A stretch of 64,000 nucleotides of DNA, from assembly GCA_964016885.1 (NCBI GenBank), contig OZ024742.1, positions 46,996,001-47,060,000 on the forward strand, in the 5' to 3' direction. This stretch comes from Eledone cirrhosa (taxonomy: Eukaryota). Shown here piece by piece: positions 1 to 59,152 of this stretch. Position 1 is the first letter of the stretch; the number at the start of each line of letters is the position of its first letter. A program made the position numbers and the translations under genes. The notes beneath the pieces are model-generated. The model searched no databases, was not told the DNA's origin, and saw only the letters and a program-made list of their open reading frames with translations.

Positions 1-131
1 CAGACCAACCTGGCACTCGTTGAGTGCTCCAACCAGCATACCAGGTGTCGGTAAACAGCCAACACATACAATTATATATATATATATATATATAATATAA
101 GATCAAAAGATGGTTAAAGGAGTTCCATATA

Positions 132-198
132 TTTTATTATGCGCATTTCAAAAACAAACATCATCAAGCAATAATATTTGTGTTTTCATCAGATAAAA
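132..198 (-). ncRNA. Type I hammerhead ribozyme
   Basis: Reverse complement of 1909-1975: UUUUAU-CUGAUGA-stemII-GAAA-UGCGCA-UA-AUAAAA. Confidence 0.8.
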
Positions 199-986
199 CA
201 GGAGAACATGATATGAAGGCTAAAAAACACTTGTTGATAGTGCAGTTTTAAATCAACATATGAAAAGTGGTTTTAGATTGATGTGTGATATTGGGAAAAA
301 TATTTTATTTAGAGAGGGGGGGGGGGGATGAAAAGGGAAGGAGATGAGAGGGAGAGATGGGTGATAGAGAGAAAGAGATAGTTTTTATAACTGAGAGGAG
401 ATATATTTTTTTACATAGAGGGGTTGAAAACCGTTGGAAGATACTGTATAAATTAAAAATTTTGAAAATTAACGAAGGGAGGATATGTGCGAGGAAAAAA
501 TATTTTATTTAGGGAGGGGGGGTGGAAAGGATGAAAAAAAGGGGGGAGGAGATGAGAGTGAAGGTGGAGAGGGAGAGATGGGTGATAGAGAGAAAGAGAT
601 AGTTTTTATAACTGAGAAAAAGATATATTGTTTTAATATAGAGAGGTTGGGAACCGTTGGAAGATAATGTATAAATTAAAGGAATTTGAAAATTAACGAA
701 GGGAAATTATGTATGAAGATAGAGAGAAAAAAATAATAATTGTGGGTGAATATTCTAACGTCAAAAGAAGAAATGTATGTATTGTGGCAATTTCAAAATT
801 AGCGAAGAGAAAAGTTGTTATGGTTTGTGTGTAGAAGGATTTGAGAAAAATAATGTGAAGTTAAAGTTTGTATATTGAATTGATATGTATTAATAATGAG
901 TTCGTTGATGGGGAGAAAAAAATAATAATAAATTAAGGATGAAATTGAGATTAAAAAGATTTATGATAGAGAGAAAAAATAATAAT

Positions 987-1172
987 TGTTTCTACTTTTG
1001 GCACAAGGCCAGTAATTACCCAGTGCATTACTGGTACTTTATTTTATCGACCCCGTAAGGATGAAAGGCAAAGTCAACCTCGGCGGGATTTGAACTCAGA
1101 TCGTAAAGGGACGTAACTATGCTGGAAAGCATGGCGTCCGACCCTCTACTGATGCTGCCAATCCACCACCCT
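987..1172 (-). mobile_element. tRNA-derived SINE (Meta/MESC-like core)
   Basis: A box TGGCAGCATCAGTAG, B box GAGTTCAAATCC, core GCCTTTCATCCTTACGGGGTCGATAAAATAAAGTACC. 16-bp TSD GAGAAAAAATAATAAT at 971-986 and 1173-1188. Confidence 0.9.
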
Positions 1173-1908
1173 GAGAAAAAATAATAATGATTGCGGATGA
1201 ATATTCAAAATGTCAAAAACAAATGTTATTATTTTACGAGAAGATAGAATGAGGGTAATGAGTAAACGAGTATTATAGAGTGTATAATGCCCTTTAAAGT
1301 AAGGTAAGGTAGATGGGTATATTTTAAAGAGGTGTATGTATATGTGCCTTTGAGAAAAGATTCTAAATTGATAAAGAATTGAATATTAACTGTATACTTT
1401 GTGAAAAGTTCTATGGAATTTATGCAGGCAGATAGAAAACAAATCTGAGCGTCTGTTTATTATAGAATCTAGGTTAGAGATAATGGTAAATTTTTCATTT
1501 AGGCAGAGATTACAGATTTTAGATAGAGAGCTGTTCAAGTATGAGGATGCAGAAGAAATCTTTTTCTAAAAGATGTTCTCCTGCATTTTTTTCTCAATAT
1601 TTTTTCCTCGCACATATCCTCCCTTCGTTAATTTTCAAAATTTTTAATTTATACAGTATCTTCCAACGGTTTTCAACCCCTCTATGTAAAAAAATATATC
1701 TCCTCTCAGTTATAAAAACTATCTCTTTCTCTCTATCACCCATCTCTCCCTCTCATCTCCTTCCCTTTTCATCCTTTTCCTCCCCCCCCCCTCTCTAAAT
1801 AAAATATTTTTCCCAATATCACACATCAATCTAAAACCACTTTTCATATGTTGATTTAAAACTGCACTATCAACAAGTGTTTTTTAGCCTTCATATCATG
1901 TTCTCCTG

Positions 1909-1975
1909 TTTTATCTGATGAAAACACAAATATTATTGCTTGATGATGTTTGTTTTTGAAATGCGCATAATAAAA
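1909..1975 (+). ncRNA. Type I hammerhead ribozyme
   Basis: Stem I TTTTAT/ATAAAA, core CTGATGA (1915-1921), GAAA (1958-1961), palindromic stem III ATGCGCAT, cleavage triplet AUA. Confidence 0.8.
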
Positions 1976-55446: not shown

Positions 55447-55539
55447 ATATTGGGGTCGATTTAATCGACTTTTCCCTCCCCCAAAATTGCTAGCCTTGTG
55501 CCTATATAAAAAAGCATTATTTGTTACTTCTAACTTCAG

Positions 55540-55748
55540 GTCATTGGCAATTAGAAGAGGAGAGATATCTCTGCATCCAGTTATATACCCATTAAATTTT
55601 GTGAGCAGAGATGTTAGGAGGTTAATGGAGAAAAAAGCAACACCTGAAAATGTTATCACCCTGCAGGATGCATGTTTAGGTGCTGTATGTTATCATACTG
55701 AATTGCTTTTCATCAATTATAAGAAGCAACGTCGAGTACCACGTGTTG
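55540..55748 (+). other. Exon-like open frame (host exon or decayed transposase)
   Basis: ttctaacttcAG|G...TTG|GTGAGT; frame SLAIRRGEISLHPVIYPLNFVSRDVRRLMEKKATPENVITLQDACLGAVCYHTELLFINYKKQRRVPRV. Confidence 0.35.
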
Positions 55749-56154
55749 GTGAGTTGTTACATAAAACTAACAGAAGTTATTAGAGTTTGGCTAGCTGAAA
55801 ACTCCTGATAATCTACCCATGTATAATGATGAATGCCTTCTGGTAGTGTAGCCACATTACAACTAAGTTGCCGTAGTTAATCTCTGTTTTTTCTACATAA
55901 TTTTTTAAATTATCTGCTATTATATATAGCTCAAGAATTCCATCTTTTCCCCAGTTTGTGCAAGCTAGGGAGGGCAATGATATATTAACGATTGTGTAAG
56001 CAAATCTACGAAGCTGCAAGGTTTGATGGAAATATTAATGTAAATCCCTCCAATATACGCGCTAAGCTTCAAACAATAAGTAGCTTCAGAGTGGATGAAT
56101 TAGTTCTGGATATACTGCCGGAAAATAAAATGAGATGTTTATGACTGAAGTACT

Positions 56155-56660
56155 TTTAGAGCGTTAGACACCATGCTTTTCAGCATAGGGTTATAGCCCT
56201 TTATGTTCTGAGTTTAAATCCCGTCGAGGTTAACTTTGCCTTTCATCCTTACGGAGTCGATACAAATAAAAGCACCAGTAATCCACTGGAATAATTCCTG
56301 GCCTTGTGCCAAAAGTAGAAACAATTATAGTCCTGCTTGAACATAGCTAACCAACTGGATCCTAAAGAATAAAATCCAGAACAAGTGTGATATATTCATG
56401 CTGGTATAAATTTAGTAGTAATCGGCATATGGTATGATATTAATAATAATGATTTCTAATTTAGGCACAAGGCCAACAGTTTGTGGCAGTTGGGAAAGGT
56501 CATTACATCGACCTCTGTATGTGACTGGTACTTTATTTTATCGACCCCCAAAAGGATGCAAAGCAAAGTAGACATTGGCGGGATTTGAACTCAGGACGTA
56601 AAGATCAGGAATAAATACTGCAAAGCATTTTCACCGGTACTCTAACGATTTTGGCATTAA
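56155..56660. mobile_element. Two tRNA-SINE copies (+ 56155-56328; - 56450-56660)
   Basis: Core and tail motifs as in the other copies. Confidence 0.75.
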
Positions 56661-58477
56661 CAATAATATTCATATCACATTTACAAAATCTAATTTGTAA
56701 ATTAGTAACATCATTCTCACATTTTCTCAAACATAATATCTCTTTTATATATTTTTATTTTTAAAACGGTAAGTGTGACTTTGAGTAGATGGGGCTGATA
56801 TATCGAGAAGCGAGAACAACCACGGAAGAGATTTCATTGTAGGTATCCGTGTAACTATTGTTGTTATATACTCGATTCTCATCCATTACTCGGAACTCAT
56901 CGATGACTCGGATCTAGCTCATCTATTATAAAAGCTGCTCCTGTAATGACAATCTAGTCATTTTGTTTGACATAGTATATATGGTTCAATATCTTTAAGA
57001 CAGCAATGACTGATTTGACGAATATTTGAGTGCTATCTCGAGTAAATCGAGTGATCACGTAGTATCTAAATCCTTGTAGGTTTGTTGATGCTATAGTTGT
57101 CGTTATTATCATAAGCATCGGCAATGTTTCGTCTCTGCTACAGTTTCTGGAACACTTATTTGTGTTGTTATTGTTGTATCTGCAATCATTTTCATGAACG
57201 AAAGGCACAGAAAATATTGAATCATAAGCATTGGTAGTATATTTTCTGCCTTTTGCTATTTCCTTTCATTTTAATGCAGTTTATGTTAAGAATTGGAACG
57301 ACTCCAAAATATTCAACAAGAATGTTCAAGTAGAATCTACATTACACTGCAATACCGCGATGTATTTTAAGCATACCACGAATCTCTCACCTCATTAACG
57401 ATCTTAGTTTTGCATTCATACATTTTTGCTTCTGTCTATATCTCTCTATATACGTATAAATTCTAGACACACGCTCGCAGATGTATATATGTATATGTGT
57501 GTATATATATATATATATATATATATATATATATATATATATATATATATATATATATATATATATATATATATATATATATATATATATATATATATGT
57601 ATATATATATATTTATATATACAGATAAAGATATATATATATATATTAGAATATTTATTATATGTGTGTGTGTGTGTGTGTGAATGTGTGTGTGCGCACG
57701 TGGGTGTTTGTGTGTGCATATATATATATATATATACGTATATGTAACGTTATATCGGTATATACACAGATGGGTGGGGATAACAGTAACTGCGCCATTG
57801 TATATATAAACATACATATTTTTGATGTATAGGCTTGTAAACATGACGGAAATATGAATTTCCTTCTAAATAGAATGATAAACATCTTTACTCGATTTTC
57901 AAACCTAGTTAGTTCTTTATCAGAAGTTGTGTCATCTAAACAACCGCAAAGAAACACGTATTGCAAAAATATTGACTCATAATTGTATTCTTAAATGCAC
58001 ATACCAATTTGCATATAATCGGTGCATGTGTTGGTAGTTAATTAAGATATATATTAAGGAGTGCGCAAATCAGCCAAAGTGTTCAATAATGGTATATCTC
58101 TATATATGCAGAAGCAGGTAATTGACTCTGCAGTAATGTATATATAATATAGAGATATATTTAACATATAGTCATGTAAAGATGCCAGAAATACGAATTT
58201 CCTGTAAATCAAAAAATATAAGCATCGGCGCAGTCTCGGTTACCCACTCTATATATGTACAGATATTGATCTATCGTCCACTTCGGTTGCTTTGCGTGCT
58301 TCTTAATGTCTTATCATATATATACACATACACACAAACATATATATATATATATATATATATATATATATATATATATATATATATATGTATATATATA
58401 TAATATAAAGGTTTACATATACATAAACTAGACAGAGCCATATATATATATATATATATATATATATATATATATAT

Positions 58478-59152
58478 TTATGTTTTTGGCAACCATTCAC
58501 GGTGTGGCTCAATGACGATTTAATTAATTATACAATCAACAATCAGAGCAATATAAAAGAAAGTAAGTCCATAGAATCATTTGATAAAATATATACAGTA
58601 TTTCTACTCCCAATCAGCATAATCAACCACATAAAAAATCAATTAAACGAGGCTATAAGTTTAAAATGTACCTATGAGCAAACGATAGCTATTTTATCCG
58701 CGATCTACAGCCACAGAATATTTACCCAGTATTTCTAATAGCCCGTAGAAATGGACTAGACATATAGCTAACGATATACAATTAAGTACAAAATCAAAGT
58801 TAGAAAAAAAAATGTAAATAAACATACCAAAAACATGGTTCTACCCCCTGAGGTTTCATTCGCTTGTTGGAAATATCCGATCATGGATAAATCAACGAGT
58901 TTCGAAATCATCAAGAAACAAACTCAATTGGACAAAGATTTTTCTTAAATGATCCCCGCCAGAAACGAATTCAAAATGGCTAAGAATTGTCACATGGCCA
59001 GTGGTCAAGTCAGAAAGCTTGTGATTGGTGCCTGACGGCGAGTATGCTGGTTGTATGAAAGCGCAGCTGAATACTGCCTAAAGTGTTACTCAACCTTACG
59101 GGAGTATATAAAATATAGAGATTTACATATACATAAACTAGACAGAGCCATA
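58478..59152. mobile_element. Family H two-ended insert
   Basis: 58482-58648 matches 61617-61805 directly; 59095-59152 matches 61812-61870 inverted. Confidence 0.55.

Follow-up and report, generated by a model that had tools for sequence, protein, structure and literature searches.

The 64,000-nucleotide (nt) stretch of the Eledone cirrhosa genome analyzed here (GenBank assembly GCA_964016885.1, contig OZ024742.1, positions 46,996,001 to 47,060,000 of the forward strand; hereafter the window) is part of contig C3 of a 3.0-Gb genome and carries numerous insertions of Penelope-like elements (PLEs) within (TA)n microsatellites. An earlier note, made from the letters of this sequence, had described such insertions as two outward-pointing sense arms, one ending at a fixed internal site (X) and the other at a fixed site further downstream (Y), in at least six unrelated hammerhead-bearing families, and had proposed that each RNA carries two programmed priming sites, one for each side of the cut target, in an obligate two-primer or two-template mode. 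Our analysis revealed that X and Y ends are strongly paired within single insertions and that, in Hydra-type families, the same predicted hairpin lies just 3' of both sites. The two-armed insertions of the window, with the motifs located at their ends, are listed below.

95..2101: family 1 insertion, Hydra-type; long X arm on the left (reverse), head-to-head with a Y arm at 1590–2101; tail of 87–89 nt
1915..1969, plus strand: hammerhead-like motif of family 1; core canonical, cleavage predicted about 45 nt 5' of X
2020..2044, plus strand: RCTCY...GAGY hairpin just 3' of the family 1 X (2012–2015)
2788..2978: family D X+Y insertion; hairpin after X at 2907–2930
14732..16004: family C insertion (Neptune-like); Y arm left, X arm right; hammerhead-like motif at 15765–15798
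29550..30049: family E X+Y insertion; tail of 142 nt; hammerhead-like motif at 29746–29849; hairpin after X at 29911–29974
34968..35157: family D X+Y insertion; hairpin after X at 35086–35109
45250..45351: family D Y+X insertion; X arm of about 12 nt
45457..45641: additional family C copy; Y arm of only about 13 nt plus X arm
46426..46533: family D Y+X insertion; X arm of 13 nt
46631..46748: family A X+Y insertion; Y arm wholly within the tail, hence no inverted repeat
50426..51137: family C insertion; long X arm plus Y arm
51413..53792: family A insertion; 2.26-kb Y arm with reverse transcriptase (RT) and GIY-YIG frames, plus a 120-nt X arm

The two arms of the family 1 insertion are 100% identical over 216 nt, and its X arm holds a nested repeat (984–1172). 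All four family D copies in the window are of the X+Y form with a tail of 78 nt, the tail of family A measures 86 nt in both of its two-armed copies (46631–46748 and 51413–53792), and the Y arm of the family C insertion at 14732–16004 ends about 13 nt short of the usual Y of its subfamily. The two-armed form described in the earlier note is therefore seen in families 1, A, C, D and E but not in family H, which is a colinear unit with a direct repeat, whereas the observation that either arm may be the long one was borne out (X at 95–2101 and in the family C copy at 50426–51137, Y in the family A copy at 51413–53792). In tandem copies of families A and E, Y continues into the 5' untranslated region (UTR), and the open reading frame (ORF) begins about 50–70 nt further on. 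The order of parts is therefore pseudo-long terminal repeat (pLTR), hammerhead, X, tail, Y and ORF, so that X and Y bound the PLE tail. Tails are 58–142 nt long in the families of the earlier note and about 33–170 nt long across all those seen, and X and Y each offer 3–6 nt of TA-type pairing (for Y, with the continuation taken from A and E). Four copies outside the X+Y rule had been omitted from the earlier note.

34922..34947, plus strand: lone family D X arm, head-to-head with the 5' end of element G
35188..35492, minus strand: family A Y arm without a partner
42606..42983, minus strand: family A X arm with a tandem junction, at which the 5' UTR and ORF start follow Y directly; hairpin 3' of Y at 42854–42869
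51240..51308, plus strand: family A fragment consisting of tail only, with a (TA)n run on either side

The pairing of ends was counted in an unselected set of eight 200-kb blocks from eight contigs, chosen irrespective of their content, which together with the window amounts to 1.66 Mb; 120 search-selected loci (L numbers) and 17 small regions served as extra material. The tally of two-armed inserts covers those with both ends readable, excludes long arms whose far end was not found, and includes about 20 inserts classed by eye from printed sequence. On this basis, 88 of 95 inserts were X+Y (family A 19, C 19, D 40, family 1 7 and E 3), two were X+X, one was Y+Y and four had one off-site end, which is an excess of X+Y over independent pairing (p = 5e-23). 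Nor are the ends scattered over TA-like sites, since 148 of the 158 microsatellite-abutting arm ends of families A, 1, D and E in the 1.66 Mb lie at X or Y, despite the 11–18 TA clusters on offer in each of these end regions. For family 1, exact end-anchored patterns covering inserts that fold near −256 gave 736 X+Y, 18 'X+X' and 8 Y+Y cases genome-wide, with the gap in the Y+Y pattern slightly narrower than for the other pairings; the prediction that X+Y would far exceed both symmetric forms was thus confirmed in the unselected and in the genome-wide sample. When the first 51 X and first 100 Y ends in the contig C1 listing were paired within 7 kb, the result was 27:1:1 (X+Y:X+X:Y+Y), and a de novo scan of microsatellite-adjacent ends revealed more families with the X+Y form. 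The exact end patterns of one family match 3851 and 7171 places in the genome. Among the counts that were rejected, a looser one for family 1 (X region plus Y, 1288) was replaced by the end-anchored 736, and an X+X pattern with W flanks (869 sites) was dropped because it also matches the Y arms of subfamilies whose tail begins with A/T only. Recurrent end pairs from one cluster in the de novo scan (8+8, 19+19) were read as internal microsatellite boundaries and not as element ends.

All three symmetric cases in the blocks (two X+X, one Y+Y) have mirror-image flanks beyond the element and are therefore likely to be later inverted duplications. The sole X+X of the C1 listing has mirrored flanks too, and those of the four X+Y controls that were printed are not mirrored. 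When the first 8 of the 18 genome-wide 'X+X' cases were checked, seven turned out to be X+Y with a tail variant and one showed mirrored flanks; among five of the eight genome-wide Y+Y cases, three have unrelated flanks and look genuine. Because single-armed, tail-only and true Y+Y inserts exist, the word 'obligate' in the earlier note is overstated, about half of the family A arms being without a partner. Inverted duplications that include host flanks and are centred on PLE arms or (TA)n were also seen at L265/L266 (C1, 35.31 Mb) and in the C10 block (62559–62764, 73129–73462 and 101984–102282); these are either biological palindromes or assembly artefacts.

The second line of evidence comes from the DNA directly 3' of the two sites. 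At Hydra-type X and Y sites with a known continuation, RCTCY, a loop of 8–66 nt and GAGY follow one another, starting 4–12 nt 3' of the site. This hairpin is predicted at all 18 Hydra-type sites, in 12 families including H, versus 14 of 192 other TA positions (p = 1e-17), in a test that is partly circular because the motif was noticed on the same families; its outer pair is G-C at nine of these 18 genome sites, A-U at eight and mismatched at one (p = 4e-5 if the sites are independent). No such hairpin was found at three non-Hydra X sites (two family C subfamilies and one other family). An out-of-sample set was provided by 78 related metagenome loci, 59 of which include an ORF start and at least 120 nt upstream of it. 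In 44 of these 59 loci the strict motif lies no more than 160 nt from the ORF (shuffled sequences: mean 0.3, maximum 3), and it occurs in 8 of 470 windows of ORF interior. In 38 roughly non-redundant metagenome loci with at least 200 nt upstream, two copies are present in 20, three in 1, one in 11 and none in 6. Copies are spaced 44–83 nt apart, with GCTCT in 13 of 24 first copies and GCTCC in 21 of 24 second copies. TAT or ATA stands just upstream of 45 of 60 metagenome hairpins against a background of 35%, and where the downstream pLTR copy ends within the contig, 12 of 17 copies stop 0–8 nt before a hairpin position, several of them passing straight into (TA)n. It was also observed that a conserved ACT continues the 3' side of the hairpin in most metagenome loci (e.g., L300, L305, L312 and L319) and in some families here. 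It is likely that the hairpin tells the enzyme where copying starts from each cut DNA end; the proposal of two programmed sites, one per side, is strongly supported by the pairing together with the shared hairpin, its 'obligate' part excepted.

Motifs point to the Hydra clade for families A, D, E and 1 as well as for two further elements of the window, which are listed here with family H.

30393..34920, minus strand: element G, near full-length Hydra-type; RT frame at 32756–34885 and GIY-YIG frame at 32396–32755
58403..59152, minus strand: family H, colinear non-coding unit with a hammerhead-like motif; hairpins at 59088–59105 and 58507–58549
59197..61478: element J, Hydra-type; minus-strand Y end at 59197; joined at 61453–61478 to 26 nt from the end of a family H copy

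The 5' end of element G begins at a Y-type site (hairpin at 34899–34915). Far from being unrelated, as the earlier note had it, families A, D, E and 1 encode proteins that are 32–49% identical and carry Hydra-clade motifs, only family C being of another type; across A, D, E, 1, G and J, the best-matching protein segments are 27–54% identical to one another. In Hydra-type families the RT is followed by a C-terminal GIY-YIG domain, with YRDD and Y[IF]GxT in this order (for element G, the Pfam match to GIY-YIG has an E-value of 5e-4 and falls short of the curated cut-off). DKT replaces DKG in A, E and G; the N-terminal motif is RWK in E, RWR in A and IWR in G; and the CxCX5C linker is present in 1, D, E, G and J and, by eye, in A. 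The absence of CCHH from the Hydra-type proteins was likewise read by eye, and overall they agree with the Hydra pattern of CxCX5C, CxxC and CxH motifs without CCHH. Hydra-type families are inserted into (TA)n, and a length below 3 kb, a descriptive Hydra trait, is exceeded by element G, with about 4.5 kb (30393–34920); a 5'-truncated family 1 arm measures 2.9 kb. Hammerheads were searched for with a descriptor of our own, in a relaxed version since the first was too strict. As regards the designation 'hammerhead-bearing', this descriptor returned canonical cores in 1, E, C and H and a variant core in A, and a variant core was read by eye in D, while Rfam gave no hammerhead match at gathering or E-value thresholds and our descriptor found no core for G and J in the stretches scanned. 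Fragments of family C proteins contain a CX4CxxC linker and, by eye, two cysteines before the YIG motif together with histidines; they had no BLASTP match to Hydra-type proteins, and family C is probably a Neptune-type PLE. By BLASTN, the terminal DNA has no similarity between families. The best named relatives of one window protein are from molluscs, an octopod among them.

Family H forms a colinear unit of about 675 nt with an internal (TA)18 and a direct terminal repeat of about 45 nt, its true left end lying at 58403. Units are also arranged in tandem in the window (58403–59152 and 61453–61890) and in the C5 block (94300–95300), with Hydra-type hairpins at recurrent ends. In being a short, non-coding, hammerhead-bearing and tandem unit it resembles the non-LTR retrozymes as described in the available part of a preprint (bioRxiv 10.64898/2026.07.22.740005); it differs from them in the Hydra-type hairpins at its recurrent ends. 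Family H is plausibly a PLE derivative, and more precisely a candidate non-autonomous derivative of Hydra elements.

The relation between the two arms was examined in 106 X+Y inserts of families A, 1, D and E, drawn both from the blocks and from the search-selected loci. Eleven of the Y arms terminate within the tail and 15 at X; the remaining 80 run past X, and of these 42 are symmetric with the X arm, 21 are shorter than it and 17 are longer. A junction overlap of at least 2 nt was found in 52 inserts. In 47 inserts the Y arm does not contain the X arm, so that the X arm cannot be a fold-back copy of it; these inserts require that copying began twice, independently, on a sense template. The two arms of an insert resemble each other more than they resemble other copies in 19 of 19 cases in family 1, 17 of 18 in A and 16 of 19 in D, and all 20 family 1 X+Y inserts compared carry one haplotype across both arms. 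As a rule, the two-template variant of the earlier note is thereby disfavoured; it does occur occasionally, one of four alignable Y+Y inserts (L297) joining two subfamilies with 9 diagnostic differences. Cross-family head-to-head junctions are three against 159 same-family ones, and those checked do not follow X+Y. Head-to-head joins between families were noted for G+D (34885–34947), J+H (61430–61478) and E+D (L213:2431–3106), and they possibly reflect rare use of a second RNA or later deletions. A G/T difference at −138 between family A arms, considered as a sign of two templates, is rare in unselected copies (1/31), reflects the query and was discarded as evidence. Apart from this, arms of both types often halt at one fixed 5' point, namely −255/−256 in family 1, where the stop is a palindrome within an initiator-like word, and about −505 to −509 in family A (L027, L029, L221, L223 and L236); the −256 and −509 limits may represent the pLTR 5' end or a transcription start. 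Arms with a 5' end at the hammerhead cut are single cases only.

The reading that we prefer, with a probability of roughly 55%, is a programmed form of twin priming, which would involve a pair of hairpins on a single RNA, two protomers and two primers. Both target strands would be nicked, and an RT-endonuclease acting as a dimer would hold this RNA by its two hairpins; each protomer would be placed by one hairpin, 4–12 nt 3' of its start, and one nicked (TA)n end would be extended from X and the other from Y. The Y-primed complementary DNA (cDNA) might then halt in the tail, halt at X, or displace the X cDNA and continue, after which the two cDNA 3' ends would be joined by microhomology or at palindromes, and the failure of one arm would leave a single-armed or tail-only insert. 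Somewhat less assured, at a little under even odds, is the extension of this scheme to the Hydra clade, in which two conserved hairpins of one RNA (the first often GCTCT, the second GCTCC) would each dock one protomer of the dimer and both cut (TA)n ends would be extended from fixed internal starts.

Several observations weigh against twin priming as proposed here. Family C keeps the X+Y form (19/19) without this hairpin, so pairing of this form is possible in its absence. In the metagenome loci the outer pair is almost constant (G-C 59, A-C 3 and G-U 1 of 63), and the covariation therefore rests on the families of this genome. Outside the 19 pairs there are 43 family A terminal alignments, some of them decayed or internal and nine of them tail-only pieces between (TA)n runs. 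The PAc element (Poseidon, Anolis) starts at sites not homologous to the cut DNA, in the accessible part of Frangieh 2024 (PMC11167929), whereas 3–6 nt of TA pairing is available here. A single source active in each cell might also account for the shared haplotypes, the long overlapping arms require that strand displacement be assumed, and the 42 symmetric junctions are of a kind that fold-back would yield as well.

The last point leads to single priming followed by fold-back or self-priming (of the cDNA or on an antisense template), with the inverted arm ending at X by annealing to the other target end. The symmetric junctions cluster at palindromes, such as CATATG at −256 in family 1, and palindromes at pLTR 5' ends are described in the consulted portion of Arkhipova 2013 (PMC3846280); this mechanism may account for part of the symmetric class, yet it cannot produce the 47 inserts in which the X arm reaches past the Y arm or has no overlap with it, and does not predict a second hairpin at X, so that as a general explanation we regard it as improbable. 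Slightly better placed, while still unlikely, is the use of two RNAs per event, an asymmetric dimer loading one RNA at X and another at Y. It would spare overlapping arms the need for displacement, and it draws on the mixed Y+Y insert L297 and on the three cross-family junctions with two short-armed cases in the window. It gives no obvious reason for the avoidance of X+X and Y+Y and sits poorly with the cross-family cases checked and with the single haplotype of the 20 family 1 inserts, given that several haplotypes exist; in addition, the 26 of 106 Y arms that end inside the tail or at X look as if X were occupied on the same RNA.

Endonuclease-mediated resolution, in which the GIY-YIG domain would read RCTC...GAGY as an inverted repeat in DNA and nick the adjoining TA-rich site (X for one side, Y for the other), ranks marginally above these and is in our opinion also doubtful. 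A role of this kind was proposed for the tail in Craig 2021 (PMC8557442, part of the text), the Penelope tail is needed for recognition of DNA by the endonuclease according to the passages of Frangieh 2024 available (PMC11167929), where Pyatkov 2004 is cited for this, and X and Y resemble the target in being rich in TA. The distance from one half-stem to the other, however, varies from 8 to 66 nt, and a folded single strand therefore fits better than a site bound by a protein on duplex DNA; in vitro RT starts coincide with tail ends (PMC11167929, same passages), and the placement of X on one side and Y on the other is left unexplained. Very improbable, finally, is that the pairing is inherited or artefactual, that is, that a few master hairpin copies were amplified whole or that long-read assembly introduced inversions. 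Such an origin would fit the strong family 1 fold hotspot near −256 (all 736 inserts) and the mirrored-flank palindromes that do occur, but it is largely refuted by junction coordinates that differ among most A, C, D and E copies, and is further opposed by the several haplotypes at the hotspot, by the unmirrored flanks of the X+Y controls, and by arms that carry private changes and are asymmetric by tail.

Twin priming of L1, reportedly put forward by Ostertag and Kazazian in 2001, is said to have both target ends prime cDNA on one RNA, with a microhomology join and a 5' inversion, and reportedly involves a variable position of the second primer and non-overlapping arms. The insertions described here differ in that their start sites are fixed and internal and their arms often overlap (Y arms passing X in 80 of 106), so that they may be twin-priming-like without being the L1 process. 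With the Hydra clade, as presented in the part of Craig 2021 seen (PMC8557442), they share the C-terminal GIY-YIG, DKT, CxCX5C, (TA)n targets, an inverted 5'-truncated arm, a tail often located at one end only and, in some families, an RWK-like motif and hammerhead-like cores; they differ from that account in having tails of 58–142 nt in the families of the earlier note, instead of the 30–40 bp of a figure there, and long 3' UTRs that bring the elements to more than 3 kb. The main text of that article, in the part seen, contains no end-pair counts and neither 'hairpin' nor 'stem-loop'. For PAc, the consulted sections of Frangieh 2024 (PMC11167929) report that in vitro both strands are nicked and extended, that two internal RT starts bound the tail, that RNA 3' of the start is required and that the enzyme is modelled as a dimer. 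Starts that bound the tail are a likeness with which the genomic ends here are consistent; the same sections do not show both sites used in one insertion, one per side, and name no duplicated signal. By eye, a short CUC...GAG stem is found about 9 nt after the distal start in the PAc template printed there, which is a lead only. For the Adineta vaga Penelope elements with endonuclease, self-priming on an antisense template was proposed in Arkhipova 2013 (PMC3846280, partial text); inverted pLTRs, a tail optional at one inverted pLTR and palindromes at the inverted junction are shared with the present elements, of which 47 of 106 inserts, unlike in that proposal, cannot be simple fold-backs. 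The portion of PMC3681739 at hand has nothing on tails.

Several other features of the window should be mentioned. A composite, insert-like block at 18691–21250 contains cut arms of family G that are joined to arms of family A. A separate repeat of about 190 nt, which resembles a short retrozyme-type or short interspersed element-type element, is nested within several PLE arms and occurs at 984–1172, 8542–8735, 41472–41659, 43108–43522 (tandem pair), 49127–49330 and 56157–56328. Broken frames of another PLE type (YIDD, GIY-YIG with CTKC and YVGQT) lie in GC-richer sequence at 37194–38286 on the minus strand. A frame at 11455–11838 (plus strand) is presumably a fragment like a hAT-type DNA transposase, and a 40-nt tandem array (11087–11491) adjoins it.

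The core two-site idea is largely anticipated by published work, and with it the central inference of the earlier note, because Frangieh 2024 tied the tail to two internal RT starts (PMC11167929, text available in part). We found no report of per-insertion pairing counts or of a twin hairpin in the literature searched, and older papers and supplementary figures may say more. What is gained is that a loose description, a tail often at one end, becomes a near-strict per-insertion rule with counts. How the PLE tail and inverted repeat are formed is an open question, for which both main papers, in the parts available (PMC8557442 and PMC11167929), call for mechanistic work; a concrete cis-element, usually present twice before the ORF in Hydra-type elements of different hosts, makes mutational tests possible and the integration question directly testable. 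The hairpin may further serve as a marker for annotating the boundaries of Hydra elements and their non-autonomous derivatives, and as a possible handle for RNA-templated insertion into (TA)n. If the proposal is true, it would provide a portable signal by which the template of a PLE enzyme could be chosen, and it would describe a mode of retrotransposition with two RNA-encoded start signals, which would explain the PLE tail and the inverted pLTRs.

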